Source: Candidatus Parcubacteria bacterium (lineage in GTDB: Bacteria; Patescibacteriota; Minisyncoccia; Minisyncoccales; JAGMDC01). Taken from it: DNA of 64,000 nt. The DNA is taken from NCBI GenBank assembly GCA_023130975.1, contig JAGMAD010000005.1, positions 22,933-86,932 on the forward strand. The letters are read 5' to 3'. The notes beneath the pieces are model-generated. The model was not told the DNA's origin. It made no database searches and worked only from the letters and a program-made list of their open reading frames with translations. Positions 9,792 through 62,000 of this stretch are shown here, one piece after another (position 1 is the stretch's first letter; every line of letters starts with the position of its first letter). Both the position numbers and the translations under genes were made by a program.

Positions 9792-9830
9792 AGTTTAATT
9801 TTAACTTTTTTAAAGCAAATAAAAAAGCCC

Positions 9831-10220: not shown

Positions 10221-10268
10221 AGACTGTTTCTATAGTAACAAAATAAAATCAACCTGTCAATGCTTTTA

Positions 10269-11978: not shown

Positions 11979-11990
11979 ATTACCCCTTGA

Positions 11991-12073: not shown

Positions 12074-12101
12074 TTGATAAGATTTTATGGTTGTGTATAA
12101 T
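12074..12101 (+). promoter_or_regulatory. Candidate plus-strand promoter TTGATA-N16-TATAAT with no downstream ORF
   Basis: TTGATA at 12074-12079 and TATAAT at 12096-12101. The -35 box overlaps the right flanking TTGA of the element. Confidence 0.4.
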
Positions 12102-13512: not shown

Positions 13513-15101
13513 TTTTCGTCTTCTTCTTTTTTCAGGGACTCTTCTAAAACTTCTTTTAATTCTTTAGTATTGATTTCTTTTCTTTCGGGCTTTTCTCTTT
13601 TTTCTTGAACTTTTCTATGAGGAGAGAAAAAAATAGGTTCTTTTTCCACTGCTTCATTCAAGGACATACTCGGTTCTTTTTTATCTTCTGTTTTAGTTAT
13701 TTTTTCAAGGCAGGACTTGCAATAAACAGGCCTTACTCCATCCGGCTTAAAAGGAACTTTTATCAACCTACCGCATTCCTGGCATTGAGCATCATAAAGA
13801 ACTGGCAAGGGCCTGACTGGTTCAGCTTCTTTTATTGGTTCTGACCACTGGCTAATTTTTTCTTCAACGATTTTTCTTTCTGTACCGTATTTGGCCCGCG
13901 ATTTTTCAATAATCTCTTCTCTGTTTGAATCTTCTGGCTTTGATGCAGGCAACAGGGTTTCAGCAGAAAATGGCCTGCTGGCTACACCGTCAATCATTAG
14001 CTTTAGATAGATGTTATATTTGGCTAAATTAACTAAATCAGAGGCAAAAAATTCTGGCATAAATTCTCTTTCTAAAAATTGGGCGTCCTCTGCTCCTATT
14101 CGAAAAGAAGCAATAGTGCCTACGTTGCCAAAAACAGCATCTCTGACTGTTTCTTCCATTTGAGCAATATATTGATGAGCCAGAATTAAGGACAAGCGGT
14201 ATTTTCTGGCTTCAGATAAGATATTGACAAAGGACTCGGTGGCAAAGTTTTGAAATTCGTCTACATAAAGGAAAAAATCATTTCTTTTCTCTTCCGGCAT
14301 ATCCACTCTGGACATTGCTGCTAACTGTATTCTGGTAATTAAAAGGGCGCCCAACAAGCGAGAAGCATCCTCCCCTATTCTCCCTTTAGACAAGTTCAAT
14401 ATTAAAATCTTTCCTTTATCCATCACCTCTCTCATATCAATAGATGATTCAACCTGGCCAATAATGTTTCTAATTAAGGGCGCGGAAATAAACTGGCCAA
14501 TTTTGTTTTGAATAGCTGCTGTGGCCTCTATCTCATATCTTTGGGTATACCTGGCAAATTCTTGAACCCAAAATGCTTTTACTACCGGGTCAGTTACTTT
14601 CTCTATCACCTCTTTGCGGTAATCAGTATCAGCCAGCATTCGATTGATGCCCAAAAGAGTGGAACCAGGATATTCTAAAAGAGCTAAAATACAGTTATTT
14701 AAAATATATTCCATTCTGGCTGACCAAACATCAGGCCAAATCTTTTTAAAGACACCCATTAAGCCGCCAGCCACTAAATGCCGTTTTTCAAGAGCTACTT
14801 CTTCCATAATATTAAAAGCAATGGGATAATCTAAGTCAGCGGGATTGAAATAAACAACATCTTTAATTCTATCCTTGGGCACAAAATCAAGAAGATTTTC
14901 TGCTGCCTCGCCATGAGGGTCAACAAAACCTATTCCCTTACCGTCTCTGACGTCTTGGATAGCCATATTCTCCAGCATAGCTGTTTTGCCCATACCAGTT
15001 TTTCCAACTACATAAAGATGCCGACGTCTATCATCGGTCTTGATGCCAAATTTTTTTCTGATATTACGAAAGTTTGTTTCTCCGAAAAAATTAATGTCCA
15101 T
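13509..15101 (-). CDS. VirD4/TraD-like (type IV coupling protein family) P-loop ATPase with a C-terminal CxxC...CxxC zinc ribbon
   Basis: Walker A VVGKTGMGKTAML, Walker B FFLYVDEFQNF, AHQYIAQM, and the C-terminus CQECGRLIKVPFKPDGVRPVYCKSC. I chose the ATG at 15101 because the ORF-track start at 15110 is TTG. Confidence 0.7.
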   Translation of the reverse strand: MDINFFGETNFRNIRKKFGIKTDDRRRHLYVVGKTGMGKTAMLENMAIQDVRDGKGIGFVDPHGEAAENLLDFVPKDRIKDVVYFNPADLDYPIAFNIMEEVALEKRHLVAGGLMGVFKKIWPDVWSARMEYILNNCILALLEYPGSTLLGINRMLADTDYRKEVIEKVTDPVVKAFWVQEFARYTQRYEIEATAAIQNKIGQFISAPLIRNIIGQVESSIDMREVMDKGKILILNLSKGRIGEDASRLLGALLITRIQLAAMSRVDMPEEKRNDFFLYVDEFQNFATESFVNILSEARKYRLSLILAHQYIAQMEETVRDAVFGNVGTIASFRIGAEDAQFLEREFMPEFFASDLVNLAKYNIYLKLMIDGVASRPFSAETLLPASKPEDSNREEIIEKSRAKYGTERKIVEEKISQWSEPIKEAEPVRPLPVLYDAQCQECGRLIKVPFKPDGVRPVYCKSCLEKITKTEDKKEPSMSLNEAVEKEPIFFSPHRKVQEKREKPERKEINTKELKEVLEESLKKEEDEK

Positions 15102-15380
15102 AATTATCAACGAATAACGAATCAGTTACGAATTTACGAATTAATTGAGCGAGGCAAATAATTTTTGGGATATTAAAGCGAGGGGAATAATTTTTGGGAC
15201 AATCCGCAGCGAATTGGCTTGGTCCCCCTCCTTTTCGCGCTTGCGCAAAAGGAGGGGGCAATTCGCGAGTAGCAGTAAATTTCCGCTGGAGAAATTTGCG
15301 TGTACCAAAAGTTACTCCCTGAGCGAAATTCCTAAAAATCACTCTCTAAGCGGTATTCTCAAAAGTTATACTTCCGAGCG
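15102..15380. repeat. 279-nt repeat- and hairpin-rich spacer inside an otherwise tightly packed operon
   Basis: Four ATTCGT hexamers lie next to the ATG. CCCAAAAATTATT occurs twice. A 35-nt GC hairpin CCCCCTCCTTTTCGCGC-TT-GCGCAAAAGGAGGGGG spans 15224-15258. There are three degenerate units of about 27 nt, CGCT(C/T)NG(A/G)(A/G)AGT..TTTT.G. Confidence 0.6.
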
Positions 15381-16670
15381 CTATTCCGTGGGCAATTCGG
15401 GTGGAGCCTCACCTCTCTTGGCCTCAACCCGAGAAATAGAAGGCGCAGCTGTAACTCCTCTACCTGGAAAATGATATAAAGAAGCTAATTCTTCAATGTT
15501 AAGAATAAAATTACCACCTGGCCATGGAAAAAAAGGACTTAATCTTTCAATATAGTTCCTGAACATTTTCCTTTTTCGAACATAAACCCTTCTATTATCT
15601 AAAAACCAAAGCCAAACAGTATGAACCTTAGTGATAGTTCTTTTCATTGGTTTTAATCCATTAAGATCTGCTGTGCCAAAAAGGTCAAAAAAACCCATTG
15701 GGATAGCTTTGTTAGGAGAGAAAAAGACATCTCTTTTCCCTAACTGAAGAAACCTTATACAACATTTAAAAGCGTACTTGCTCGTTTTATCTTCAATGGC
15801 AGACACTACTTTTTTCTCCCCGGGCGTCAGCTCCATTTCCGGAAGAATAGCTCTTTCTTTTTCCTCTGCTTCTTTTGGCACTTCTCCAGTAACTAAGACA
15901 TCTATTGCTTCTTCAATTATTGGTTTTGAAATTGGCGGCTTAGGTCTGTTCACTAATTTATCTACTTCTTTCTTTCCTTTTTCTATAAAATATTTGCTTT
16001 CGTCAAGATGAGAAACCGGCACAGCCGTAATTTGAACCCATAACTGCTCGCCCGGTTTAAATTTTGCCATTCCTTCTAAAAGATTGGACATAGGATCAAT
16101 TCTTTTTTCTTCTTTTGCTACTTCTGGTCTTTCTTCAAAAAATTTAGAATATGTCTTAATGGGATAAACCTCATCTTTTAGCTGATCATAATCACAGCCC
16201 CATATTTCCCAGTCCTTATTAGGAACGTCTTGGGGAACATATTTGGTATAATCATCAACTTCTATAATTTCCAAGTCCGGATACTGGGAATAAAGTACTG
16301 ATTCCACTAAATTACGAGCATTTTCTGGAATTCGAATAAAAAAATGGGGCTCACCCCCAAAACAAGCGATTTCTAAAGAAAAACCTAATTGCGCTTTTCC
16401 TTCAAACCATTTTTCTCTATAATTGGGCGGATCGTAAAAATGCCATAAGCCATTAAAGACAGTTTCCATTGCTTTAATAGGCCTTAAAACCTCTTTGGGC
16501 GGTTTTATTTCCAATACAATGCATCTTATTTTACCAAACCAAACTTGATTTCTCCACCAAAGATAAAGAAATAAAAAGGGCTTAATAAAAATAAAGGGTA
16601 TAATCACCCACCACCAAGTCCTTAAAAAATCCCAAATAGTATTAGAAATTAGAAAAATTTGCTCTTCCAT
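15381..16670 (-). CDS. Membrane-anchored hypothetical protein (429 aa) partnered with the VirD4-like ATPase
   Basis: Trp-rich N-terminal TM region (WDFLRTWWWVIIPFIFIKPFLFLYLWW) followed by a large soluble domain. The C-terminal tail (KRGEAPPELPTE) runs into the GC-rich repeat spacer. Confidence 0.6.
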   Translation of the reverse strand: MEEQIFLISNTIWDFLRTWWWVIIPFIFIKPFLFLYLWWRNQVWFGKIRCIVLEIKPPKEVLRPIKAMETVFNGLWHFYDPPNYREKWFEGKAQLGFSLEIACFGGEPHFFIRIPENARNLVESVLYSQYPDLEIIEVDDYTKYVPQDVPNKDWEIWGCDYDQLKDEVYPIKTYSKFFEERPEVAKEEKRIDPMSNLLEGMAKFKPGEQLWVQITAVPVSHLDESKYFIEKGKKEVDKLVNRPKPPISKPIIEEAIDVLVTGEVPKEAEEKERAILPEMELTPGEKKVVSAIEDKTSKYAFKCCIRFLQLGKRDVFFSPNKAIPMGFFDLFGTADLNGLKPMKRTITKVHTVWLWFLDNRRVYVRKRKMFRNYIERLSPFFPWPGGNFILNIEELASLYHFPGRGVTAAPSISRVEAKRGEAPPELPTE

Positions 16671-27190: not shown

Positions 27191-27228
27191 ATCTAATTTG
27201 ATTTTAACAAATTTTTATAAAAAAACAA

Positions 27229-27296
27229 CCCCGCACCTTTTCTAGACAGCTTTGAATTTTTGAAGCCTTTGGCTTCTGTCCAGAAAAGGTGCGGGG
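27229..27296. mobile_element. 68-nt palindromic element copy forming a 23-bp stem with a T-run upstream of secA
   Basis: AACCCCGCACCTTTTCTAGACAG ... CTGTCCAGAAAAGGTGCGGGGTT. The terminal 13 nt CCCCGCACCTTTT are identical to the pgk copy. On the minus strand it is followed by GTTTTTTTTAT. Confidence 0.7.
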
Positions 27297-27312
27297 TTGG
27301 AGAAGAAATTTA

Positions 27313-30530: not shown

Positions 30531-31691
30531 ATGTATTTTGTTCATCCCCAAATAAATTTAAACAAAAAAAATTTTCAGAAAATATTCTCTTCTTTTTTCC
30601 GAACTCCTGATTCAAAGGGCTTAAACAAAAAGCTCTCTTCTTTCTTTCCGGAAAAGCAGATTGTTTTTACTGACATGGGCAGGTCGGCTTTTCAAATCAT
30701 AATTGAAAAAATGAATTTAAGAAACAGCCAGATGCTTTTTCCTGCTTACATCTGCGATATCTTCCTGCCCATTTTTAAGAAATATAATATTAAACCGATT
30801 TTCTTAGATGCTGATATTAAGACCTTTAATTTAAAAATTGAAGAAATGGAAAAGAAAACCAGTCCCCAAACCAAATCTATTTTTGTTTCCCATATTTACG
30901 GCCTGCCTAATAACATAAATAAGATATTGTTTATCGCTAAAAAACATAATTTAAAAGTCATTGAGGACTGCGCCCATAGTTTTGGGATAAAAAAGGGAAA
31001 AAGATATTTAGGAAATTTTGGTGAGGCCTCTTTGTTCAGTTTATACAAATTTCTTCCGGTTGCTAGAGGAGGAATGCTGGTCTGTCCCAAGAACTGGAAA
31101 ATAGATTTAGAAGAAACATCTTTCAGTCCCCGTGATTTTATTTCTTTCTTAAACCATTTTCCTTTTTGGGCTTTTCTGTTTAAAAAATTTGGCGGCTTCG
31201 TTTCTCCAAAAATAATAAGAAAAGAAAAGCTGTCTAAGACCGGAGGAATTAACAAGGTCTCTTTGAATCTATTTTCTTCTCTCTTTGAAGAACACCAGAA
31301 AAATTTAAAAAAAAGAATAAATCTTGGCTTGTTTTTTCAAAAAGAACTTAAAAATTTAGGCTTTGAGACCCGGGAAGGAAAAGAGAATGGTTTTTGCTAT
31401 CTTTCTGTTTTAATGCCAAAAAAATTGAGAGAAAAAAGAGATGATTTTATAAAAGGACTGAGAAAAGAAGGTGTCCATTGTACAAGAATGTGGTATAGTC
31501 CTATAGTTCTTAATCCGGAAGCGCAAAAAAAATACAAATTAGACCTAAATGAATTTCCAAATACCATAGAGATAAGCCAAAGAGTTATTAATTTTCCTTT
31601 GCAGGATTTCTTTCAGAAAAAAGACATAAAAGAAATGATTGGAAAAATAAAGAAAGTGCTTAATTCACTTGACCCCGTAGTGAAAATTTGA
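30531..31691 (+). CDS. DegT/DnrJ/EryC1/StrS-family protein (aminotransferase-like)
   Basis: PAYICDIFLPIFKKYNIKPIFLDAD, VSHIYGLP, VIEDCAHSFG and SLYKFLPVARGG. The last codons and the stop lie inside a palindromic element. Confidence 0.6.
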   Translation: MYFVHPQINLNKKNFQKIFSSFFRTPDSKGLNKKLSSFFPEKQIVFTDMGRSAFQIIIEKMNLRNSQMLFPAYICDIFLPIFKKYNIKPIFLDADIKTFNLKIEEMEKKTSPQTKSIFVSHIYGLPNNINKILFIAKKHNLKVIEDCAHSFGIKKGKRYLGNFGEASLFSLYKFLPVARGGMLVCPKNWKIDLEETSFSPRDFISFLNHFPFWAFLFKKFGGFVSPKIIRKEKLSKTGGINKVSLNLFSSLFEEHQKNLKKRINLGLFFQKELKNLGFETREGKENGFCYLSVLMPKKLREKRDDFIKGLRKEGVHCTRMWYSPIVLNPEAQKKYKLDLNEFPNTIEISQRVINFPLQDFFQKKDIKEMIGKIKKVLNSLDPVVKI

Positions 31692-31748
31692 CAAAGTTTT
31701 CTTTTGGAAAACTCATATCGCAAAGCGAGTCAAATTTCTACTACGGGG
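31673..31748. mobile_element. 76-nt palindromic MITE-like element overlapping the 3' end of the DegT-like gene
   Basis: The arms are CCCCGTAGTGAAAATTTGAC and GTCAAATTTCTACTACGGGG. TTGA flanks lie at 31669-31672 and 31749-31752. The stop codon at 31689-31691 lies inside the element. Confidence 0.65.
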
Positions 31749-31834
31749 TTGACACAAGTTCTTGAATTTGCTAACATTAGATTAGTGAGTGTGAGATCCT
31801 ATGAGAAATCAAAGGAACTCCATTCTTTGTCGGC

Positions 31835-31875
31835 AAAAGACCCCGGTTTCCGGGGTCTTTTGCTTTCTCTTTTTT
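31835..31875. terminator. Bidirectional rho-independent terminator between convergent genes
   Basis: AAAAGACCCCG-gtttc-CGGGGTCTTTT followed by GCTTTCTCTTTTTT. Confidence 0.75.
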
Positions 31876-50527: not shown

Positions 50528-52010
50528 AAATTTTTCGCAATAAATTAATTCTAAATAAGAATTTATAAAAAAGGAATAGTGCGGCAAAGTAAACTAATAT
50601 TCCTATAATAATTGTGAGAATAACATTAAGATTATAAACCACAGATTGACTAATAACAACAAACATTATTATGCTGGAGAAAATGCCTATAAGTAGGATT
50701 TTAAATAATCTTGAATCAAAAAGAGAAATAAGCGCAAATCTCTTTGAAAATTCTATTCCTAAGAAGAGTATAACAAGATAAGTTATTACAGCAGCTACCG
50801 CAGCACCATAAAGGCTAAAAATAGGAATTAAAATAAGATTTAAGGCAACATTTGTTATAGCAGCAATTAAATTAATCCAAAGATATTTTTTTTGTTGATT
50901 AAAAACAATTAATATCATTAAATAAGGATTATAAAGAAAATTTATTCCTGCCATTATAATTAAAATTTGAAAGGCAAAAATCGAAGGGGCAAAACTCGAA
51001 CCATAAAGAAAATCAATAATTCTTGGGGCAAGAAACAAACCTCCCACCATTATAGGCATAGCCAAAATAATCATTATTTCCATATAATGATTCCATGCTC
51101 TCTGAAGTTTTTCATTTGATTCTTTAAAAAACTTACTTAAAACAGGAAAAAAACTCATAAAAATCAATGTAGCGGGGATTATAGTAACGCCAACAATTCT
51201 TCGAGCAGCATTATACCAACCGGTTTCAGTAATTTGCCCTAGACAACCCATCATTACCGAAGCCACATTTATGAAAATAGTGCCAAAGACGGCAGCTAAA
51301 CCTAAGGGCCAAGAAAGTTTAAAAAATTTTTGCCAGACAGCTTTGTTCCAGCTTAAATTTAAAGAGTGAATGCGGAAATGAAAAAACAATAGAATAAAAC
51401 TTAAGGCAATTAAATTAGTAAATAAATAGCCGTAACTTAAATTCTCAATCGAAGGAAATTTAAAAAGAATAAAAAGAACTATACTAACTATTATTAGGGA
51501 TTGAAAAATCTTAGCCCCACATTCATATTCCATTCGCTGACGAGCTCGCAAAAAAGCATAAATAATACTAAAAAAATTACTAATTAGAACATAAACTCCT
51601 AAAAGCAAGATGATTTTTTGGATGACAGGATCTGGAGTAATAAAAAATGAACTAATTAGGATTAAAAGCAACGCCCCAATACTTAAAAGAATTTTTAAAG
51701 AAAGGATTGCTGAATATTCTTTTTCGGTTTCTTTATCTCGAGAAAATTCCCGAATAGTAATTTCAGAAAGCCCAAACTCAGAGATAATGGCAAGCATTGA
51801 AACAAAAGATAAGGCAAAAGTAAATTTTCCAAATTCAGTTGCTCCTAAAATCCGAGCGATATAAATAATCAAAATTAACCCTAAAAGGCGAGACACTCCT
51901 TCAGCTGCAGCCAACCAAAAAGTGTTTTTTAAAATCGTTTGCCTAACAGTTTTATTATCAAAGAACAATGATTTCAATGACTTAATATCTGTAAAATTTT
52001 TAATGTCCAT
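50517..52010 (-). CDS. Wzx-type polysaccharide flippase (MOP superfamily)
   Basis: 497 aa with about 14 TM segments. The N-terminus TILKNTFWLAAAEGVSRLLGLILIIYIARILG is typical of Polysacc_synt. Confidence 0.8.
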   Translation of the reverse strand: MDIKNFTDIKSLKSLFFDNKTVRQTILKNTFWLAAAEGVSRLLGLILIIYIARILGATEFGKFTFALSFVSMLAIISEFGLSEITIREFSRDKETEKEYSAILSLKILLSIGALLLILISSFFITPDPVIQKIILLLGVYVLISNFFSIIYAFLRARQRMEYECGAKIFQSLIIVSIVLFILFKFPSIENLSYGYLFTNLIALSFILLFFHFRIHSLNLSWNKAVWQKFFKLSWPLGLAAVFGTIFINVASVMMGCLGQITETGWYNAARRIVGVTIIPATLIFMSFFPVLSKFFKESNEKLQRAWNHYMEIMIILAMPIMVGGLFLAPRIIDFLYGSSFAPSIFAFQILIIMAGINFLYNPYLMILIVFNQQKKYLWINLIAAITNVALNLILIPIFSLYGAAVAAVITYLVILFLGIEFSKRFALISLFDSRLFKILLIGIFSSIIMFVVISQSVVYNLNVILTIIIGILVYFAALFLFYKFLFRINLLRKIYGY

Positions 52011-52016
52011 ATTGTT

Positions 52017-52823
52017 TTAAACTCTCCATTTTCTCAAAGCTCCAGAATACCTCTCCCAGGTTCCGCAGTCTGTCCATCTACCTTGAAATTTCAAAGCGTT
52101 TAATTTTTTTTCTTGGACTAATTTAGGAAAGATATCTGTTTCAATCATAGTGAATTTAGGGACAGTATAACCCGCCTTGACGCGATAGCGAGGCAGGTAA
52201 TTAAAAATTTCCGGAGACAACAAATAAAGCCCTGAATTAATATAGTTCGTAGGCGGATTCCCTGCCCATCCAAATTTTTTCAAAATTTGGGAGGGTGAAG
52301 GTTTTTCCAAAAACTCTTTAACTTTTTCTTTCTCGCAAACTACTACTCCATAATCCTGAGGATGAGGAACCTTTACTAAAGCAATAGTTGCTGGCTCTTG
52401 ATTGCTTTGATGAAAACTTGCCATTTTATTCAAATCTATTTCTTTTAATTCATCACCATTAGTCAAAAAAAATGAACTACTTGAAAGCCAGTCCTTTAAA
52501 AGAAAAACTCCGCCGAAAGTGCCTAATGGTTTTTCTTCCTCAAAAATTTTAATTTTATTTTTAGGATAATATCTTCTTTTCCACCAATCAAAGTCCTCTC
52601 TAAATTCTTTATTGATTAAAACAGCAATTTCCTTGACTCCTTGTTCTCTAAATAAATCAACTAAATAATTGATAATTGGTTTTTTCCTAATAGGAAGTAA
52701 GGGTTTTGGGATTTCCTTTGTTACTGGATATAACCGGGTTCCTTTTCCTCCAGCTAATATTATTGCTTTATAATTTGATAAATTATTTTTTACCATAATA
52801 GACACTGATTTATATTCTACCAC
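52017..52823 (-). CDS. Sugar-phosphate nucleotidyltransferase
   Basis: AIILAGGKGTRLYPVTKEIPKPLLPI signature. The start is ambiguous (52823 or the internal Met at 52796). Confidence 0.8.
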   Translation of the reverse strand: MVEYKSVSIMVKNNLSNYKAIILAGGKGTRLYPVTKEIPKPLLPIRKKPIINYLVDLFREQGVKEIAVLINKEFREDFDWWKRRYYPKNKIKIFEEEKPLGTFGGVFLLKDWLSSSSFFLTNGDELKEIDLNKMASFHQSNQEPATIALVKVPHPQDYGVVVCEKEKVKEFLEKPSPSQILKKFGWAGNPPTNYINSGLYLLSPEIFNYLPRYRVKAGYTVPKFTMIETDIFPKLVQEKKLNALKFQGRWTDCGTWERYSGALRKWRV

Positions 52824-53062
52824 TTTTCAATGGTTCTTACAGCTTTTCTTTTTATTTTTTGATATGCTCTTATAGCTTTGTTCTCTGCTTGAGGCGAAAC
52901 CAATCTTAAAATCTCCTTACCCCAGATCCTATATCTGCCGCCAACTTTATTAGCTTTAAGAATGCCATTTTTTAAATGGCGTTTAATAGTGCTTTCGCTT
53001 ATCTTTAAAAAACTCCGAGCTTCTTCGGTTGTATATATTTCATTGGGATTTATTTCTTTCAT
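52817..53062 (-). CDS. Excisionase/MerR-type helix-turn-helix DNA-binding protein
   Basis: YTTEEARSFLKISESTIKRHLKNGILKANKVGGRYRI shows the HTH_17 pattern. Confidence 0.65.
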   Translation of the reverse strand: MKEINPNEIYTTEEARSFLKISESTIKRHLKNGILKANKVGGRYRIWGKEILRLVSPQAENKAIRAYQKIKRKAVRTIEKW

Positions 53063-53068
53063 TGTCTT

Positions 53069-53097
53069 ATTATATTAAAAGCAAAAGACCCTGTCAA
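53069..53097 (-). promoter_or_regulatory. Canonical promoter TTGACA-N17-TATAAT, 6 nt from the ATG (leaderless)
   Basis: The minus strand reads TTGACAgggtcttttgcttttaaTATAATaagacaATG. Confidence 0.6.
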
Positions 53098-53194
53098 TAG
53101 GGGTCAATAAGGTTCAAATGAATTTGCTCATCTTAGAAATAAGATTTTTCTTAAAATCTTTCAAATTTAAAAATTTTTGCAAGCACTCATTCTA

Positions 53195-53203
53195 TGCTAT
53201 AAT
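53195..53203 (+). promoter_or_regulatory. Extended -10 TGCTATAAT, 6 nt from the yraN ATG (leaderless)
   Basis: The plus strand reads tctaTGCTATAATttcaatATG. Confidence 0.5.
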
Positions 53204-53209
53204 TTCAAT

Positions 53210-53623
53210 ATGATAATCTCTAAGAAACAAACAGGAGAAATTGGAGAAAGAATTGCCGAGAATTTTTTAAAGAAAAAAGGATATAAAATTTTGGACAGGA
53301 ATTTTTTCACTCGTTTGGCTTTGGGCCCTAAAACCGGAGAAATTGATATTATTGCTGAGAAAGAAGAAACAATCTCATTCGTAGAAGTTAAAACAATAGA
53401 AATCTCCCCTCGCGGCTTCGCCGCAAGGGGAGATTTTATCCCACCAGAGCAAAAAGTTAATTTCCAAAAACAAAGAAAAATAATAAAAACTGCTCAAATC
53501 TGGCTTTCCAAAAACAAAATGCCCCTGAATAAAAAATGGCAGATTGATGTAATCTCAATAAAAATAGATTTAGATTTGAAAAAAGCTGAAATTAAACACT
53601 TTCAAAACGCTTTTGGAGAATAA
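53210..53623 (+). CDS. yraN: YraN-family (UPF0102) endonuclease-like protein
   Basis: GEIGERIAENFLKKKGYKILDRNF...GEIDIIAEKEETISFVEVKT. I chose the ATG at 53210 because the ORF-track start at 53177 is TTG. Confidence 0.75.
   Translation: MIISKKQTGEIGERIAENFLKKKGYKILDRNFFTRLALGPKTGEIDIIAEKEETISFVEVKTIEISPRGFAARGDFIPPEQKVNFQKQRKIIKTAQIWLSKNKMPLNKKWQIDVISIKIDLDLKKAEIKHFQNAFGE
53401..53435. repeat. 35-nt GC-rich palindrome in frame inside yraN
   Basis: AATCTCCCCTCGCGGC-ttc-GCCGCAAGGGGAGATT, with 15 of 16 bp paired. It encodes ISPRGFAARGDF. Confidence 0.65.
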
Positions 53624-53627
53624 CTTA

Positions 53628-53646
53628 TTAGCTTAGTTAGCTTGCT
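53628..53646. repeat. 19-bp direct repeat copy 1 (TTAGCTTAGTTAGCTTGCT) at the 3' end of the epimerase gene
   Basis: Identical to 54612-54630. It overlaps the epimerase stop codon region. Confidence 0.8.
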
Positions 53647-54587
53647 AACTTATTCCTGAACCACTCCACTGTCTCTTTCAATCCCCTATCTAAATTATAT
53701 TTCGGCTGACAGCCAAGCTCTTTTTTTGCTTTTTTAAAATCTAAACAGCTTCTTTTCTGCTCACCAGGTTTTTCAGGAATATGAATCTCTTTACAATTTA
53801 AATCAGCCAACTTTCTAATTTTTCTAAAAATAGTATTAATACTGGTTTCATTTGCTGTCCCAATATTAAAAACCCCGATTTTGTTTTTCTTCAAAGCCAA
53901 TATATTCGCTTCAACCACATCATTAATATAAACAAAATCCCGGGTTTGTTTTCCATCACCGTTTATTGTTGTTTCTTTACTATTTAGCATTTTATCGCAG
54001 AAAATGGCAATTACTCCTGCCTCTCCTTTTGAATTTTGTCTGGGTCCATAAACATTTGACAAACGCAAAGATACATAAGACAGACCAAAAACTTTATAAT
54101 AATAATTTAAGTATTTATCAAAAACCAATTTTTCAATCCCATATGGCGAAACAGGCATTTCAGGATATGTTTCTGGAGTAGGAATAATATCAGCGTCGCC
54201 ATAAATGGCACCGCCAGTAGAAGCAAAGATTATTTTAGAAGCGAATCTATGCGAACGATTAGGCGAAAGAACGCGAATAAAATTCTGAATTATATTTAAA
54301 GAACCGAGAATATTAATTTTGGCATCTTCAATTGGATCCTCAACTGATTTTCTTAAATCAATTTGAGCCGCTAAATGAAAAACTGTTTCTGGTTTTTCTT
54401 TTTTAAAAACATCGGAAATTTTAGGACTCCTGATGTCCAATTTATAAAATTTGGCTTTAGGATTCAAGTTTTTTTTAGTTCCGGTAGATAAATTATCAAT
54501 CACCACCACTTTATGATTTTCTTTGATTAATCTATCTACTAAATGACTTCCGATAAAACCAGCTCCCCCAGTGACTAATATCTTCAT
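53637..54587 (-). CDS. NAD-dependent NDP-sugar epimerase (GalE-like extended SDR)
   Basis: MKILVTGGAGFIGSHLVDRL, and SPYGIEK (the YxxxK motif). Confidence 0.88.
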   Translation of the reverse strand: MKILVTGGAGFIGSHLVDRLIKENHKVVVIDNLSTGTKKNLNPKAKFYKLDIRSPKISDVFKKEKPETVFHLAAQIDLRKSVEDPIEDAKINILGSLNIIQNFIRVLSPNRSHRFASKIIFASTGGAIYGDADIIPTPETYPEMPVSPYGIEKLVFDKYLNYYYKVFGLSYVSLRLSNVYGPRQNSKGEAGVIAIFCDKMLNSKETTINGDGKQTRDFVYINDVVEANILALKKNKIGVFNIGTANETSINTIFRKIRKLADLNCKEIHIPEKPGEQKRSCLDFKKAKKELGCQPKYNLDRGLKETVEWFRNKLAS

Positions 54588-54589
54588 AC

Positions 54590-54629
54590 TTAGTTAGCTT
54601 AGTTAGCTTAGTTAGCTTAGTTAGCTTGC
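54590..54629. repeat. (TTAGTTAGC)4 perfect 9-nt tandem repeat plus TTGC, in a divergent promoter region
   Basis: The units are 54590-98, 54599-607, 54608-16 and 54617-25. It starts 3 nt from the epimerase ATG and is followed by TTATAAT and the plus-strand Wzy_C gene. Confidence 0.9.
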
Positions 54630-54662
54630 TTATAATCTTTATTTTTTATATCATAAAACAAT

Positions 54663-57035
54663 ATGGAAAACAATATCGTTGAAAATAAAATAAAATGGGT
54701 TTATCTTCTGGGCTTTTTTTTAATTTTGGCCTTACCGCTTTTGAATCTACCGCCCTGGTTCTCGCCGCCTGACTGGGGGAAAACCATTGTTTTTAGGATT
54801 ATTCTATCTCTAATGATTTTTGTTTTTCTATGGCAAGTCCTTTTCCAGAAATTAAATGATAATTTATCATTGATCATTAAAAATATATTAAATAAGCAAA
54901 GTAAGGTTTTTTTAAGTTTCTGGCTCTTGATTGCTTTCTTAGGAGTTTACTTCTTGGCTACCCTATTTTCTCAAGACCCATATTTCAGCTTTTGGGGATC
55001 TCCTTACCGTGCCGGTGGATTTCTTAATTTCGCTTTCTGTATAATTTTTGCTATTTTAGCTTTTTTAATTCTCCGAAAATCTGACTGGCAAAAAATCTGG
55101 GATTTTAGTATAATTATTGGAATTTTTGTCTCATTTATTGCTATCTTTCAGCAACTCGGTCTTTTTAGTAAGGTAGTTATTCCTTTTTCCGGTAGAGCGC
55201 CTTCTACTATCGGCGGACCAATATTTTTGGCAATTTATCTTTTGCTTTTATTTTTTCCTATCTTATTTTTTGGTATTAGAGAAAAAAATCTTGTTAAGAA
55301 GTTTTTTTATTTTTTTGCTCTTTTATTATTTTTTTATGTTATCTTAAATACTGGAAGCCGAGCCGCTTATTTTGGATTATTAATTGGAATCTTTTATTTT
55401 GTTCTTTTCTACCCTGTTAAATTCCACTTTGCGGCACCCAGCCTTTTACAGAAAGGCGGGGTATTTAACAGGGTGGACCCCCACACCAAAAAGCTTTTTT
55501 TAGTCAAAATCTTTTTTGGAATCCTTTTGGTTTTAGGAATTTTGGGAGTTTATTATTTGAATGCTGATTACCAAGTCCCTCAATCTTTTCAAGAAAACAA
55601 GATTTTTAAAACAGTCAATTCAAGATTATCTATCAGTTTAGCCATAAAAGATCCTCGTTTCTCCAGTTGGGAAATTGCTTTCAGGGCAATGAAAAAAAAA
55701 CCGATTTTGGGTTATGGGCCGGAAAATTTTTCAATTGGTTTTGATAAGCATTATGACCCTTCTTTGCCATACATTGATCCGGATTGGGGCAGTTGGTATG
55801 ACCGTGCCCATAATTTTATTTTTGATATTGGGGTTACTGTAGGAATTTTAGGTCTGATTATTTACCTTTCCCTTTTTGCAGTTTTATTCTCTGGATTACA
55901 AAAACTAAAAAAAATTAAACCAGAAAAAATAATAATATATCATGGAATTCAAGCTGCTTTCTTAGCTTATTTGGCAGCTAATTTCTTTAGTTTTGATACT
56001 TTTTCAACCTACTTAATATCGTTTTTAATAATTGCTTATAGTTTAACTTTAATAAATCAATCAGAAAAAAAGCAAAATGAAATCATTAAACCAAAAATTA
56101 GAAGTGTCCAAAAACTCACGATCGTGAAAATTTGGACACTTTTAAAAAAATATAAAAAAGCAATTATTGTTATTTTATTTTTATTCTTAATCTGGTTTAT
56201 CTGGGCTTGTAATATCAAACCTTTTTGGATTAACAAAGAAATCCGTTCTACTAAAACTCAATCTCAAATTGGGAATTATCAACAAGGCCTGAAACAATTA
56301 GAAAGCGTCTTGGATTCTCACACTTATTTAGACAGTTATTTAAGATTAAATTATGTTGAGCTTATTAGCCAAAACCTAGAAAAAACTCCGCCGGCTTTTC
56401 AGGGAATTTTAGTGGAAAAAGCAATCAATGCTTTAAAGGAAAATACTGAAATCAGACCTTATTATACCAGAAACTGGTTATTGCTGGGAAATTATACCAA
56501 TGTTTTGATTGAGAAAGGAAAAAAAAACCTAAGAGGAGAAGCATATTACTATTTTGAAAAAGCTCTTCAATTAAGCCCTAAGCACTTAGAAATTTTCATT
56601 GGTCTGGCAAAAACCGATTTATTAACCAATGATTATTTAGGAGCAAAAAATAATGCCCAAAAATGCATCAATTTAAATTCAAAAGTTGGAGAATGCTGGT
56701 GGTTAATGGCTATAACTAATATCTATTTGAATAACATTGAAGAAGCCCAGGGAAACATAGAAGCAGCAAGAAAAGCAATATATCCTGTTGGCTCAAAATC
56801 CTCTACTGCTCAACTTATAAATGCCTATAATTACATCAAAAACTATGAAGAAATAGTTAAAATTTATCAAACATTAATTTTGCAAGAACCAAACAATGCT
56901 CAATATCATTTCTCCTTAGCAGTTTATTATAAAGAACTGGGTAATAATGAAAAAGCAAAAAAAGAAGCTCTAAGGGCTTTAGAGCTAATGCCAGAAGCAA
57001 AGAAACAAATAGAAGAGTTTTTAAAAACTCTTTAA
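54663..57035 (+). CDS. O-antigen-ligase-like (Wzy_C domain) polytopic membrane protein fused to C-terminal TPR repeats
   Basis: NTGSRAAYFGLLIG and YDRAHNFIFDIGVTVGILGL show the Wzy_C pattern. The C-terminal ~250 aa has TPR-like repeats (YYFEKALQLSP, AVYYKELGNNEKAKKEALRALEL). Confidence 0.75.
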   Translation: MENNIVENKIKWVYLLGFFLILALPLLNLPPWFSPPDWGKTIVFRIILSLMIFVFLWQVLFQKLNDNLSLIIKNILNKQSKVFLSFWLLIAFLGVYFLATLFSQDPYFSFWGSPYRAGGFLNFAFCIIFAILAFLILRKSDWQKIWDFSIIIGIFVSFIAIFQQLGLFSKVVIPFSGRAPSTIGGPIFLAIYLLLLFFPILFFGIREKNLVKKFFYFFALLLFFYVILNTGSRAAYFGLLIGIFYFVLFYPVKFHFAAPSLLQKGGVFNRVDPHTKKLFLVKIFFGILLVLGILGVYYLNADYQVPQSFQENKIFKTVNSRLSISLAIKDPRFSSWEIAFRAMKKKPILGYGPENFSIGFDKHYDPSLPYIDPDWGSWYDRAHNFIFDIGVTVGILGLIIYLSLFAVLFSGLQKLKKIKPEKIIIYHGIQAAFLAYLAANFFSFDTFSTYLISFLIIAYSLTLINQSEKKQNEIIKPKIRSVQKLTIVKIWTLLKKYKKAIIVILFLFLIWFIWACNIKPFWINKEIRSTKTQSQIGNYQQGLKQLESVLDSHTYLDSYLRLNYVELISQNLEKTPPAFQGILVEKAINALKENTEIRPYYTRNWLLLGNYTNVLIEKGKKNLRGEAYYYFEKALQLSPKHLEIFIGLAKTDLLTNDYLGAKNNAQKCINLNSKVGECWWLMAITNIYLNNIEEAQGNIEAARKAIYPVGSKSSTAQLINAYNYIKNYEEIVKIYQTLILQEPNNAQYHFSLAVYYKELGNNEKAKKEALRALELMPEAKKQIEEFLKTL
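55411..55474. repeat. 64-nt nested palindrome in frame inside the Wzy_C gene
   Basis: The outer 12-bp inverted repeat is ACCCTGTTAAAT and ATTTAACAGGGT. The inner one is GCCTTTT/GAAAGGC. It is followed by CCCCCACACCAAA, which is identical to the recJ element terminus. Confidence 0.6.
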
Positions 57036-58180
57036 AGCTGGCTAATCTGCGACTGGATTAAAATAATTAGCTGATTTAGAAGTTCAATAATCATTTGTTG
57101 AACTTCTTTTATTTTTGCTTTAAGTTCCTGTTCGTTCATTTCGGAAATCGGTTTTTCTTCCTCTTCTTCCTCTTCTTCCTCTTCTTCGTCAATAGGTGGG
57201 TATTCACAAGAACCATCATCTCTTGTTGCTTCAGGATTGTAGTTTAAGGCATTAGAATCTATGCAACCTTCTATCACTAATTCTGGGAAATTAACTTCTA
57301 CGGTAATAGAATCTCCATCTGTTTCAGTATTATTGAGCCAATCAGCTGATTTTGTTTTAAGAATATAATCACCTTCTGTAATATCCTGCCATTGATATTC
57401 CCAGGTTCCATAATTGGAACTAGTTGAATCAACTTCATACCAAACATTATTGATGCCTATCTTTACCCAAGAAGGAGTTGAACCGCCTTGGTCACGAGCT
57501 ACGCCTTTGATAGTATAATTCTCAGTATCAATGATTGAATTATTTTCTGGTTCAGTAATAACTGTTTTTGGAGCAAGATTATCAATAACAAAATCGCGGA
57601 TTGTTTGAGAATAGGAATTAACAATGGCTTCGTCACTGGGACCATTGTTTTTTGATTCCATAAAGATGCCTAAGTCCCCTATATCAAAATCGCCATTGCT
57701 GTTTTCATCGTATAATATTGGTATTCTTAATTGGATAGAGCGATTAGCAGTGGCATGTTTCCATATCTCAACGCTTACAAAAATTCTTAAGCCCTCTAAG
57801 GACACTAGCTCTTCTAAATTATCTAAATACCAGTTATTATTTAAACCATTAAAAGTAAAAGTGCCTAATTCTTTATCTTTTTCTAAACCTTGAAAACCAG
57901 GAGTGTCATCATCTTTCCAAAGTTTAAATCTTTCAATATCATAAAAATCTTTAGCTGTCCCTATATTTTCCAAAGCAATGGCTAAAAGTTTATCTTCTCC
58001 ATTTCTTCCTGAAGGAATTGTCAAATCCATTACCAATTTATCAAACTCTTGAGGATAACAATAACTACTTGGCGCTTGATGATTGGTAAAATCACTGTTT
58101 ATTAATGCCTTAGCAGAACTGGTTCCGAAAAAAGAAAAAATAATAAAACTAACAATTAAAATTTTATAAGAATTTTTCAT
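57032..58180 (-). CDS. Secreted protein with beta-sandwich-like regions, a poly-Glu linker and a C-terminal PISEM coiled coil
   Basis: Signal peptide ILIVSFIIFSFFGTSSAKA. Cys-bracketed motif CIDSNALNYNPEATRDDGSCEY, then EEEEEEEEEEEKPISEMNEQELKAKIKEVQQ. Confidence 0.5.
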   Translation of the reverse strand: MKNSYKILIVSFIIFSFFGTSSAKALINSDFTNHQAPSSYCYPQEFDKLVMDLTIPSGRNGEDKLLAIALENIGTAKDFYDIERFKLWKDDDTPGFQGLEKDKELGTFTFNGLNNNWYLDNLEELVSLEGLRIFVSVEIWKHATANRSIQLRIPILYDENSNGDFDIGDLGIFMESKNNGPSDEAIVNSYSQTIRDFVIDNLAPKTVITEPENNSIIDTENYTIKGVARDQGGSTPSWVKIGINNVWYEVDSTSSNYGTWEYQWQDITEGDYILKTKSADWLNNTETDGDSITVEVNFPELVIEGCIDSNALNYNPEATRDDGSCEYPPIDEEEEEEEEEEEKPISEMNEQELKAKIKEVQQMIIELLNQLIILIQSQISQL

Positions 58181-58191
58181 AGAGATGAAAA

Positions 58192-58866
58192 TTATTTAAG
58201 TTTTTTTAATTCTTCAAGGTCTATTTTAGCACCTTCATTGTTCGGATCCAACTCTAAAACTTTTTCATAATACGGGATAGCCTTTTCTTTTTGGCTAGTA
58301 TCTTTGTAATAAACAGCTAACATTGAATAAAAATCTACCGGCGCTTCTCCAAATACTTTTTTATTGTCTTCTATAGCTTTTAATAAAAATCCTTCAATCT
58401 GGGGATACTTTTCTTTTAGATGAAAACGATATAAAGTTTTCAACTCTCGGTAAGCATTTCTCCAGTTAGGATTAACTTCGATTATCTTTAAATACATCTT
58501 TTCAGCATTTTCATATTCTTTCTGTTGATTATAAATATCTCCTAAATTATTAAGTATTAAAGTATTAGTAGGCTGTATTTCCAAAGCCATTAGATAAACC
58601 TTTTCTGCTCCGTCTAAATCCTGCACTTGATATTTTACCTGGGCAATAGCTATTAAAGCTAAATGGTCATTAGGGTTTGCTTTTAAACTATTTTTTGCAT
58701 CATCAAATTTAATTTGCTGGTTTTCAGTTAAAATTACTCCTTCAGGCAGAGAAAAAATTTCATTTTCTTCTGAAGCTGGCTGGTGCCTTTGATAAAGAAA
58801 AAATCCTGCTACTGCTATAAGCAGAATTAAAACAATAAGAAAAAAGATTTGATATTTTTTTGACAT
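58192..58866 (-). CDS. Membrane-anchored TPR-repeat protein
   Basis: An N-terminal TM segment (IFFLIVLILLIAVAGFFLY), then several 34-aa TPR-like repeats (AEKVYLMALEIQP, AEKMYLKIIEVNP, AIPYYEKVLELDP). Confidence 0.7.
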   Translation of the reverse strand: MSKKYQIFFLIVLILLIAVAGFFLYQRHQPASEENEIFSLPEGVILTENQQIKFDDAKNSLKANPNDHLALIAIAQVKYQVQDLDGAEKVYLMALEIQPTNTLILNNLGDIYNQQKEYENAEKMYLKIIEVNPNWRNAYRELKTLYRFHLKEKYPQIEGFLLKAIEDNKKVFGEAPVDFYSMLAVYYKDTSQKEKAIPYYEKVLELDPNNEGAKIDLEELKKLK

Positions 58867-58939
58867 ATTTTTGTTCTTTATATTTCAATCTTCTATTTTA
58901 TATCAGCATATTTATATTACCATAAGTAAAAAATAAAAC

Positions 58940-58969
58940 AAATCCCGCCCCGAATTCGGGGCGGGATTT
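58940..58969 (-). terminator. Strong rho-independent terminator after the 1248-aa protein gene
   Basis: Perfect 30-nt palindrome AAATCCCGCCCCGAATTCGGGGCGGGATTT. On the minus strand it is followed by GTTTTATTTTTT. Confidence 0.8.
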
Positions 58970-59025
58970 TAACCCATTCAGCTCACAAGGAAGCCAAATG
59001 AGAAATCAAACAGAATTAACAGAAT

Positions 59026-62000
59026 TTAGTAGATCAACGAACCACCGGTAACTGGCAATTTCTTAGTAAGAGTGCTATCAATTTCAACAGCTGCGCTATT
59101 ATTCTCCCATTCTATACCCGAAGTAGTAGCATTATAACTACTACTAGAGTGCGGCCCTAAAGTCAACTGGATACTAAGTGTAGTCAGGGCACCGGTAGTA
59201 TCACCAAAGATTCTGATAGTCTTGGTAGTCCCTTCAGCAATCTGTAGGGTAGTTGAGAAGGCAACTATATCGTTGTGGGCTAAAGCACCACTATTATCAC
59301 CAACTGAGAAGCAATAGGCATTAGCGTCAGTTGGAGTTGGATCAAGTATAGTGTAGGTATTACTAGTGCTTAAAACTGCATCCCAATAGGCATCAAAGCC
59401 GGATTGGGTTATCGTAGCATAGGTTGTACCAAGATCAGAACTCTTAATGGTTAAACTACCTGTACCAGAAACAGTCGCTGTACCAGCTACACAGAACTCC
59501 ATTTCGTTAATAGTAATGTCATCACCAACAGCCTCAAGGTCTAATTCCATTACCTCTTTATTAGCGCCAGCTGTCTGGGCACCAGAAGGTGAACCAGAAG
59601 CAAGACTGGCTACTAAAACACCGTCATAGAGGTATTGAGTGTAGGAGGCAGCAATTGTTCCGGCTGTAGTAGCAGTGCTGTTTATCCAACCAGAAGTTCC
59701 ATCATTAACAATTGTCGTACCAGAAGAAACTCCATTAGCAGTCATATAGTAACGAATAGTGCCAGCAGATGAGGCAGCACCATTTGCTCCCCACTCACTG
59801 TAATCACCATCTGAATCACCCAAACCAACCTCTACTGTATCGGCATCAGTTAGAGAAATCTTATCAACCAAATCAACTTTCATAGTTAAGGTCTTGTAAG
59901 TTGATTTTGGTACGGTCAATGTCCCGGATGTTAGTGAGATAAGTTTTTTCCCGTTGTTTGTTGCGTCTAATGTGTAACCAGCAGAATTACCCAGTATGTC
60001 TCCATCCAAGTATAACTTTACCTTGGCGACATTGGCACCACTCCTGGTTCCTTCAGTAGCAATATAGAAGTTAGTTATTGTGATGTCTTCATTGACGGCG
60101 TACAACCTGTATTCCATCATTGAATTACCAGTTGCGCCAGCAACGAATTGAGCTGCAGCTGGCCTGTCAGCAGAAACAGTTATTTTCAATGTTCCTACAG
60201 AACCAATTGTCTGTTCCTGACCTGTGCCAGTGTAGGTCTCGCCAATTGCAGAGCCGGTTGACCAACCAGTTGAAACAACGTGATCAGTGGTATTAGCAAT
60301 CTTGAAGGTGTGAGTAGTACTAGCTGTATTATTAACCACATCTGCCTTCAAGGCTAACCTCTCAGTTGTTCCTGCAGTAATTCTCAAAGGAGTCCTTAAG
60401 GTGAAAGTAACTATATTGGCATTAGTGGCTGTTGAGTTAGTGGTTTCCAGTTTAGTATCCCCATCAAATAATTCTAGGTTGTTAATTCCTGTATATGTGG
60501 TCGTACCTCCTGTTACTGTATCTGTGGTTTTTATAGTAGTCACTTTTACATCCTCACCTGAAGCACTAGCGTCTAAGTCAAAGTAGGCAAAGACTGCGTC
60601 TTGGGCACTAATTACTATTGTTCCGGCAATCGGAACAGAAGCAGTAACGACTGCTAAAGCAGGTCCTAGAATTGTCATCGTGTTAGCAGTAACTGCGCTA
60701 GTACCCGGAGGCACATCAGTTCCGGAGGAAGTTGTATAAGTTGTCTTTCCAGAAGTAGCTCCTTTGGCAGTAATACTACTAGCTGGCAGATTAACAACAA
60801 CTGTTGTGCTAGTAAGAGTATCAGTACTATAAGAACTGGCAACATTAGCCTTAATATGGACAGTAGTAGTTCCAACCGGAAGCGAGTAGGAATCAGTGAA
60901 AGTTAAGTTTTGATTACCATTTTGGGTAGTTGTAGTACAATCTTGCGGACCAAATAAAGCATTTCCGCTGTCGTCGTAACCAGTTACATTGGTGTAGTAA
61001 ATTGGCCTACCACTACTGGCAGCGGTCAACGTAACCTGAGTTGAGGTCACATTAACTCCTTCACCACCAGCAACAAAGTCAAAAGCGGCTAATTCTTCTT
61101 GACTACCGCCTAAAGCAATGTTTCCAGTAGCTGGAGTTTTGCTTGATTTAGAAACTGTCAAATAACCCTGATTAATGGTTTGGGGCGTACAATAATAAGT
61201 TGTAAGACAGAAATTGTTGCAAGTAGGAGTAATTCCAAAACCATAAGTTATCCCAACCATATCAATTGTATACGCGGATCCATCCCATAAATCAAAGGTT
61301 AAAGTTCTTCCAGATCCTGCAACCAAGGAAGCTAAAATGCTTAATTCAACATAACCACCTTTTGCAACTTCAATATTTAAGTTGCTGAAGACAGCTTTTC
61401 CATCAGCAGGAAGAGTGGCTAAAGTGCCTATAGTTGTACCAGTAGTGTCATTGACTAATTTTAAGTCTTTAACATCAGTGGTAGCGGCAGTACCATTCTT
61501 AATTGCTGTTACTTGGGTAATCTTTAGACCCTCGGCAGAACCAGCCATTATTTTAACCTGAGTAAATCTGATGTCTGCTTCAGACGGATCCACGGTTAAA
61601 TCGCTATCGTTTCTAGTTCCGCTTGATCCATCGTATAAAACGGCTGTGCCAATGGTTATAGTGGAGATGTAAGCCATGCTATTCCCAATAATTGGGAAAG
61701 TTCCGGTAACTGCAGCAGTAGTAGTAATATCAGAAGCTGAGTCAATAGATAACTGGATTATATTTCCATTGTAGGTTGCTGAAGCAGCAATCATAGTTGC
61801 GGCTAAGGTAATGGTTTTAGTAGTACCAGCCGGAACATTAATAGAAATATTACTAAAGGTTGCCTTATGGTTTGAACCTAAGCTCTGGCTTGTTCCAATC
61901 TGAATTGAGCCATCATATAGCTTGACATTAGAAACAGCTGCGTCTAGGCTTAATCCTTTCCTAACAACTTTTAAGCCGGTAATCGTAACGTCACCATCAG

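Follow-up and report, generated by a model that had tools for sequence, protein, structure and literature searches.

We describe a GC-rich palindrome that is translated inside the yraN gene of a Candidatus Parcubacteria bacterium, in a stretch of 64,000 nt of contig JAGMAD010000005.1 (called here the window). Relatives carry a hairpin at the same site of the gene, where the two arms have changed in concert and the encoded peptide has not been conserved. We put the probability at about 0.55 that this is an old, vertically inherited palindrome whose arms would be kept matched by hairpin-templated replication or repair, that is, by template switching.

A palindrome translated within yraN

The palindrome occupies 37 nt at positions 53400-53436 and reads AAATCTCCCCTCGCGGC-TTC-GCCGCAAGGGGAGATTT. 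On the plus strand, the repeat finder reported 17-nt arms at 53400-53416 and 53420-53436, complementary at 16 of 17 positions (94%), with a 3-nt spacer (TTC) at 53417-53419. The sole mismatch, C53411 versus A53425, becomes a G·U wobble when read on the minus strand. The palindrome is symmetric about the second base of the Phe70 codon, which is the TTC of the loop; orthologous loci L166 and L171/L172 have GAA (Glu) in this place. The codons from ATC53402 to TTT53437 are translated as ISPRGFAARGDF (I65-SPRGFAARGD-F76) between VEVK(T) and PPEQKV.

The RNA minimum free energy of the palindrome was -29.5 kcal/mol compared to -12.3 ± 2.6 kcal/mol for 200 dinucleotide shuffles (z = -6.7, with 0 of 200 as good). 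The window has 11 hairpins of at least 10 pairs, compared to 0-1 in block shuffles; among these 11 the yraN hairpin is the strongest one located inside an open reading frame (ORF).

The host gene yraN (UPF0102) runs on the plus strand from the ATG at 53210 to the stop codon at 53623 (137 amino acids plus stop), with the palindrome in frame. Besides the ORF list, its identity follows from a Pfam match to UPF0102/YraN PF02021 (E = 3.3e-21; 75.9 bits versus a cut-off of 23.6), from 100% identity to the protein P0001, annotated at NCBI as 'YraN family protein [Candidatus Parcubacteria bacterium]', and from an AlphaFold (AF2) model. The PD-(D/E)xK nuclease motifs GEID...VEVK are intact, residues G43, E44, D46, E59, V60 and K61 are invariant in the protein alignment A1, and the A1 profile matches the UPF0102 structure 3FOV in PDB (E = 4e-11). 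A recent study describes YraN as the endonuclease that works with the ComM helicase to resolve the natural-transformation D-loop (bioRxiv 10.1101/2024.02.06.579203).

The palindrome lies in a linker of hypervariable length, T62-P78 (53393-53443, plus strand), between the catalytic strand VEVK and the helix 85-101, as delimited by the alignments A1 and A2, a table of loop lengths and the AF2 model. Among 51 aligned homologues GEID, FVEVK, PE.KV and WQID are conserved around the linker, and the stretch from VEVK to PE varies in both length and sequence. Counted from K61 (the K of VEVK) to P79 (the P of PE), this stretch has 19 residues in the window, 11 in distant homologues (KTRxxxxFGxP type) and from 10 to 24 across Parcubacteria relatives; in 3FOV it is much shorter than in the window. 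The net extra length is 8-9 codons only, and the outer stem uses native flanking codons. In the AF2 model (mean predicted local distance difference test, pLDDT, of 82.6) the linker follows strand 54-65 and precedes helix 85-101; the pLDDT of residues 69-76 and 78-80 is under 50. The palindrome-encoded segment is thus predicted to be a disordered surface loop just past the catalytic E-V-K strand.

A preliminary description, made from the sequence alone, had reported the palindrome as AATCTCCCCTCGCGGC-TTC-GCCGCAAGGGGAGATT at 53401-53435, GC-rich in an AT-rich gene, translated between VEVKT and PPEQKV, and placed where YraN proteins were said to have only a short linker. The palindrome was read exactly, the repeat finder adding one pair; the contrast in composition is 53% G+C in segment T62-P78 versus 32% in the gene (the window as a whole has ~32%). 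The reading frame and the shortness of the linker elsewhere were borne out as well, and the alignment of orthologues supports the view of extra sequence in a normally short, permissive, translated linker.

Orthologous hairpins differ in sequence and share their position

DNA was gathered for ~170 homologous loci (the handles beginning with L below). Many Parcubacteria yraN orthologues have a hairpin in the same loop with stems spelled differently. The linker has 19 residues in all genes of the closest clade, most of which have a strong hairpin with its centre at the codon that is central in the window. For example, the hairpin of L162, GAAACCGCCTTTCGCG...CGCGAGAGGCGGTTTC (-31 kcal/mol), differs from that of the window at several paired positions, while L169/L170 have AGCCGCCCCGCCCGC...GCGGGCGGGGCGGCT (-47.7 kcal/mol). 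Other hairpins with this centre have energies of -41.8 (L165), -44.8 (L082-84) and about -39 kcal/mol (L166 and L167). The loop peptides of relatives, such as TPPAFGGRGG, ETAFRDSYARGG and ITSAPPGGAEVIS, are each encoded by a palindrome of their own. The condition set to refute the preliminary description, one peptide present in diverse YraN proteins with non-palindromic DNA, thus does not refute it: the peptide varies and the palindromy stays.

The hairpins of the 19-residue clade have the same centre codon, the same length, CCCC/GGGG at the same columns and a TTC loop. Since the centre codon, the TTC loop and the CCCC/GGGG columns are common to the clade of the window and its sister clade, the hairpin predates the split of the two, whose YraN proteins are ~67-70% identical. 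It is not a recent insertion: its site is orthologous, and the ancestor common to both clades already had it. The genes with 16-residue loops make up a second series of hairpins in one register, in which paired positions co-vary as well. More distant loci (L012, L060, L034, L004, L018 and L076) also have hairpins in the loop, with centres of their own.

We assessed covariation in A3, an ungapped alignment of 14 clade members. Both sides were altered in 13 of the 17 stem pairs. The fraction of paired cells was 76.9%, compared to 40-55% when the partners were slid, and the covariation score was reached by none of 500 shuffles. Cells with a double change numbered 42 versus 16 ± 3 in the shuffles.

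Perfect Watson-Crick palindromes made up 14 of the 18 non-redundant strong hairpins. These 18 were picked by DNA complementarity with Watson-Crick scoring, and for this reason the perfection of the stems and the scarcity of G·U pairs carry less weight. Sense and antisense folding energies were indistinguishable (29 versus 21, Wilcoxon p = 0.77); the hairpin of the window itself folds better in the antisense strand (-33.5 versus -29.5 kcal/mol). Given this lack of strand bias, the complementarity is a property of the DNA.

Among members with an intact hairpin, the hairpin sequence was 62% identical; in the rest of the gene, identity was 65% for third codon positions and 88% for the first and second. 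Thus, the palindrome evolves at the neutral rate. Because of this rate, the low pLDDT and a swap of Phe to Glu at the loop (next section), the peptide is not the thing that is conserved.

Loop inversions, decay and loss

The stems of L165 and L166 are identical, while their loops are TTC and GAA, respectively. Similarly, L082 (TTC) and L171/L172 (GAA) have 6-8 differences in 420 nt (98.5% identity), three of them in the loop. The flip from TTC to GAA was independent in these two lineages, and among cluster members the Phe and Glu forms are both present on several protein backgrounds. A hairpin of another gene showed a CAT/ATG loop flip (L163 versus L001). Inverted loops and multi-base compensatory changes are footprints of template-switch mutation (PMC8794818), and a loop of three adjacent bases turned into its exact reverse complement beside unaltered stems is the one recognized for template switching or inversion mediated by a hairpin; the yraN palindrome has both, the TTC-to-GAA inversion with unchanged stems and the changes in both arms of 13 of 17 pairs.

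Hairpins were also eroded and lost. In L161 and L081 the hairpin is partly eroded by GC-to-AT changes breaking several pairs, and in L168 and its cluster the erosion is seen in steps. In L001 and L164 the loop length is unchanged and the hairpin is gone. In the L002 clade exactly 27 nt are missing, a removal of the palindrome. In a neighbour-joining tree built from the 130-residue protein, too coarsely resolved for assigning changes to single branches, intact and decayed hairpins are interleaved; for instance, L162 and L001 are sisters with energies of -30 and -3 kcal/mol.

Proposed maintenance of the palindrome by template switching

These observations are best explained by a palindrome that maintains itself at the DNA level. 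When the region becomes single-stranded in replication or repair it would fold back on itself, and the polymerase could jump from one arm to the other as template. Any single-arm mutation would then be either erased or copied to the other arm, so that 'compensatory' double changes arise at once, and the same switching could also invert the loop. Arms would stay perfectly matched in this way while their sequence drifts at the neutral rate, and the protein would tolerate the changes because the peptide is an unconstrained loop. AT-biased point mutation would oppose the process; once a stem is weakened, correction would stop and the hairpin would decay or be excised by slippage. The element may have originated as an insertion of a GC-rich terminator-like hairpin or as a template-switch duplication seeded on the flanking codons. 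The maintaining process is inferred here, as are the origin of the element and its lack of a selected function.

Several points weigh against this explanation. Maintenance by template switching is read from its footprints, and the paper that describes such footprints (PMC8794818) itself terms the evidence for stem maintenance circumstantial. The G+C richness of the element in a 32% G+C genome needs an additional assumption, either that correction persists only for stable stems or that the element started as a GC-rich insert. The preference for one site is strong. In 157 loci taken together, the density of hairpins with 9 bp or more was 4.06 per kb in the loop, compared to 0.13 in the rest of yraN and 0.27 in the flanks, and in 30 of the 57 genes with long loops the loop was the most stable window of the gene; a purely neutral process gives no obvious reason why one loop is so favoured. 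Multi-copy palindromes exist in relatives. The yraN hairpin of L018 has 22 identical nucleotides in common with an intergenic copy 3 kb away, so that copying between loci also happens. Finally, the element is built like a bidirectional intrinsic terminator.

Complementarity between VK and F-x-P codons was probed as a possible intrinsic seed of a hot spot. In short-loop orthologues the loop folded slightly better than elsewhere (-8.5 versus -5.8 kcal/mol), in a minimum-of-three-windows comparison that favours the loop.

Alternative explanations

Because the strength of the site preference and the G+C richness are unaccounted for by template switching, two rivals stay alive, a selected structure and mobile hairpins. 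We consider each of them unlikely, and neither one less so than the other.

The first rival supposes that selection keeps the pairing of a nucleic-acid structure: a bidirectional intragenic terminator or attenuator, a site of RNA stability or processing, or a hairpin or cruciform recognized by a protein. As a terminator or RNA site, it would limit the expression of a potentially toxic nuclease or block antisense read-through. The 15-30-fold enrichment at one loop and the strong covariation fit such selection. So does the sequence on the minus strand, where the terminator scan called a terminator-like element at 53400-53446, with the GC-rich stem-loop directly before the T-run CTATTGTTTT. Its stem of 17 pairs (one of them G·U, 10 of them GC) is the longest of this kind in 52000-60000, and it sits 200 nt downstream of a convergent epimerase-like ORF (53637-54587, minus strand). 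On the plus strand, only a trimmed stem, or GC core, is followed by ATTTTATC. The window's other GC-rich hairpins of similar style, at 58940-58969 and 31833-31863, are intergenic and resemble ordinary terminators, and several orthologous hairpins (L060, L034) are built as A-tract, GC stem and T-tract.

On the other hand, the hairpin is lost by decay or deletion in close relatives with an intact gene (L001, L164, L002), and its sequence evolves no slower than at the neutral rate. The stems are nearly all Watson-Crick, and a bias to the sense strand is absent. The conserved hydrophobic codons (F/I/V) before P-E account for the T-rich tail as well. The hairpin sits inside the yraN ORF, not at the end of a transcription unit, and a terminator acting on the sense strand there would truncate YraN before helix 85-101. 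No Rfam family matched; the best overlapping hits had E = 0.55-7.6, far below gathering scores. Given the lack of strand bias, the loss in close relatives and the lack of an Rfam match, what is conserved is not a sense-strand RNA structure either; selection specific to the sense RNA was rejected for the lack of strand asymmetry.

A terminator of the convergent epimerase-like gene was considered as a general explanation. It fits the window and fails across orthologues: a convergent downstream gene was present in 4 of 19 loci with the hairpin versus 8 of 68 without it (Fisher p = 0.29). This explanation was rejected because the presence of the hairpin is independent of the orientation of the downstream gene.

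According to the second rival, short mobile palindromes similar to repetitive extragenic palindromic (REP) elements, SPRITEs, Rickettsia palindromic elements (RPEs) or yeast GC clusters repeatedly insert or convert at a permissive or preferred target, the yraN loop. The copy in each genome would then belong to an element family of its own and would not descend from one ancestral hairpin. In accord with this, relatives carry a multi-copy 40-nt GC palindrome, which occurs twice in one gene and in different frames, and the P0018/P0022 lineage alone has a clean 36-nt hairpin inserted in a different YraN loop. The 22 nucleotides that the L018 hairpin shares with an intergenic copy on the same contig, and a core, CAGAGAAC-N-GTTCTCTG, that recurs at other loci and in other genomes, point the same way. 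Between distant clades the hairpins are unrelated in their stems and differ in loop length, and the window itself has a family of larger palindromes, one copy of which is internal to an ORF.

Mobility is harder to reconcile with the palindrome of the window. No other copy of its 29-nt core was found in the 64 kb with up to 3 mismatches, none was seen outside yraN in the 170 loci, and a scan of viral contigs gave no copy. In BLAST searches of yraN-loop hairpins and the hairpin at 15224-15258 (described below) against the window and the 170 loci, the two hairpins of the window gave self-hits only. Neither a flanking or target-site duplication nor conserved termini are visible at the palindrome. 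The centre codon, length, CCCC/GGGG columns and TTC loop common to the 19-residue clade argue for homology by descent.

Less probable still, the palindrome could be non-neutral, a functional element tied to YraN itself. It might then serve as an intragenic terminator or attenuator that works in both directions and throttles the nuclease, as a hairpin or cruciform acted on by the structure-specific YraN nuclease or its partners, or as a 3-nt invertible switch toggling Phe and Glu at the loop tip near the active site. Such a function, if real, would account for the 15-30-fold hairpin density in the loop.

A chance by-product of the amino acid sequence or an assembly artefact is effectively refuted: short self-complementary DNA does encode some conserved motifs (e.g., GKTLGVLP, or VK versus FLP codons in L113), but the shuffle z-score of -6.7 with 0-1 comparable hairpins expected per window, the hairpins of orthologues, the covariation and the conservation of the pairing and not of the peptide stand against chance, and the feature is seen again in dozens of assemblies made independently in different projects, with 17-nt arms so far under the assembly k-mers that the reads should resolve the loop orientation.

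Comparison with known systems

In mechanism, the closest match to the yraN palindrome is template-switch or quasipalindrome mutation, which includes Ripley-type quasipalindrome correction. In phenomenology, the closest matches are the in-frame GC clusters of yeast var1, the RPEs and the coding palindromes of Nematomorpha.

The footprints of template switching described by Monttinen and Loytynoja (2022, PMC8794818) resemble those in yraN in the multi-base compensatory changes, the perfect stems and the inverted loops. Those hairpins reside in RNA genes (rRNA, microRNA), whereas that of yraN is translated in a protein-coding gene. The yraN hairpin also differs in persisting at one orthologous site in a bacterial clade, with a recurrent TTC/GAA (Phe/Glu) flip.

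The GC clusters of yeast mitochondria (PMC8811140) are likewise short GC-rich palindromes in an AT-rich genome, occasionally in frame (var1). They are mostly intergenic, and they cause protein length polymorphism when located in a coding region (PMC8811140). The yraN palindrome agrees with them in being a GC-rich palindrome of 30-50 nt, in frame, in an AT-rich genome. Unlike it, the clusters form multi-copy families with AG/TAG terminal repeats regarded as target-site duplications, and they belong to an organelle and not to a bacterial chromosome; neither a multi-copy family of the yraN element nor terminal repeats or target-site duplication was found in the window and the 170 loci.

The RPEs (PMC10969869) are also in-frame palindromes in conserved bacterial genes at positions tolerated by the fold, and the yraN palindrome is in frame in such a part of the protein (pLDDT below 50 at residues 69-80). 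However, RPEs are ~150 bp long and make up ten repeated families, each with a conserved peptide, while the yraN element has 37 nt, is single-copy in the window, lacks a conserved peptide and has arms evolving in concert. No multi-copy family was found in the 64 kb with up to 3 mismatches, and no conserved peptide among the orthologues.

Perfect inverted repeats translated within genes are found in Nematomorpha mitochondria (PMC6649704). There, both arms encode conserved protein regions and the repeats reach 284 bp; in yraN the arms (34 nt) encode a disordered loop.

REP and SPRITE hairpins (PMC3733652; PMC10969869) are similar in being GC-rich stem-loops of 20-40 nt with the order A-tract, GC stem, T-tract. 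They are extragenic, high-copy and tagged (GTAG/CGTC for REP), while the yraN hairpin is intragenic, translated, untagged and single-copy in the available sequence. It lies in an ORF and starts with AAATC, so that the extragenic location, high copy number and GTAG/CGTC tag of REP elements and bacterial interspersed mosaic elements were not found.

Among translated palindromes, the yraN element is distinguished by its one orthologous site, the concerted evolution of its arms and the recurrent one-codon flip. Literature searches found no report of translated palindromes in the candidate phyla radiation (CPR)/Patescibacteria.

Other hairpins and neighbouring features

The preliminary description had set beside the yraN palindrome a second hairpin of the same size and style at 15224-15258, and had proposed a shorter class of palindromic insert that tolerates translation. 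The second hairpin is real, stable and intergenic, located in the spacer between two minus-strand ORFs; by BLAST it has no sequence in common with the yraN hairpin, and a link between the two beyond style is unsupported. A shorter class of translated palindromes does exist in relatives (the 40-nt and 36-nt palindromes), while the yraN hairpin itself has no second copy in the 64 kb with up to 3 mismatches. The hairpin at 15224-15258 consists of 12 bp, a bulged C and 3 bp around CTTG (-36.4 kcal/mol with the outer flanks, z = -4.0) and forms the inner part of a longer inverted repeat, GCGAATTGGC...GCAATTCGCG. Since neither strand has a T-run after it, the hairpin does not qualify as a canonical terminator. 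The spacer around it (15100-15400) has repeated GCGAGG..AATAATTTTTGGGA motifs.

The 40-nt element of relatives is a multi-copy perfect GC palindrome, CCGGGAAGCCATCCCGG-N6-CCGGGATGGCTTCCCGG, inside a gene of a multi-pass membrane protein downstream of yraN. Its sites are L082:2105-2146 and 3174-3215, L084:3189-3230, L118:454-493 and 1580-1619, L168:942-981 and L170:835-851. Its translations in two different frames are PGSHPGGRRDGFPD and SGKPSRRSPGWLPG; it occurs twice in one gene and is absent from the window. The 36-nt GC hairpin (CCCCG..ATCCC-TTC-GGGAT..CGGGG) lies in frame between GEIDIVA and KKD of YraN, at L168:175-213 and at the same position in L173. It encodes EPRRNPFGILRG, is confined to the P0018/P0022 lineage and has point-mutation variants within the cluster.

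The core CAGAGAAC-N-GTTCTCTG and its close variants occupy intergenic, coding and yraN-loop positions in several genomes (L018:228-249, L047:69-86 and 587-609, L167:1789-1831, L165:719, L163:1990-2008 and L001:4917-4935). It could serve as an operator or a terminator, or it could be a hairpin that is mobile. None of the 40-nt, 36-nt and L018-type palindrome families is present in the window.

The motif GKTLGVLP is encoded in several genomes by self-complementary DNA, GGCAAAAC...GTTTTGCC (L003:4123-4149, L008:4792-4822, L014:4091-4115, L018:4097-4123 and L096:2612-2634). The codons may simply happen to be complementary, or this may be one more coding hairpin that is maintained.

The family of larger palindromes in the window (~75-85 nt, with the motif ACCCCGCACCTTTT) has copies at 13016-13100, 11990-12074, 27226-27299 and 31672-31749. 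Their arms of 21-26 nt are 88-96% complementary, with loops of 26-36 nt. The copy at 13016-13100 is inside the ORF 12391-13512 (minus strand), and the remaining copies occupy intergenic DNA or the ends of genes. It was probably this family to which the preliminary description alluded in implying a larger class of translated inserts.

Two long helices with perfect stems, at 9879-9906 and 10016-10047, have AGCACTCA/TGAGTGCT in common. They belong to a class A RNase P RNA at 9826-10221 on the minus strand (105.4 bits versus a gathering score of 100). The hairpins at 9879-10047, considered as further inserts, are ordinary helices of this RNA.

Within yraN, the codons of GEIDI(I/V)A and (T)ISFVEVK at 53336-53392 are partly complementary (GAGATTGATATT versus AATACAATCTC). 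The resulting fold is weak (-4 to -14.5 kcal/mol) and conserved in all close relatives; it is probably a by-product of two conserved beta-strand motifs. Between yraN and a divergent HTH_17 gene there are divergent promoter-like sites at 53069-53097 (minus strand) and 53176-53203 (plus strand), one with a perfect TTGACA-17-TATAAT and the other with TTTGCA-16-TATAAT and a TG extension. Each -10 box ends ~7 nt ahead of the ATG (53062 and 53210), a spacing which suggests that the HTH_17 and yraN mRNAs are leaderless. The divergent pair is kept in L162, L164, L166, L169 and L171.

Significance

The yraN palindrome adds a case from a bacterial chromosomal protein-coding gene to the small set of translated palindromes made up of the RPEs, the var1 GC clusters and the Nematomorpha repeats. 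Because one hairpin can be traced here in intact, inverted, eroded and excised form, the locus offers a natural experiment on the origin and upkeep of perfect stems. In yraN the protein constraint is nearly absent and a bias to one RNA strand can be excluded; therefore, the template-switch model is directly testable there. Strong covariation in a hairpin is, alone, no proof of a functional RNA. As to the proteins of CPR bacteria, inserts rich in P, R, G and A that are encoded by GC-rich DNA may be mere translated palindromes.

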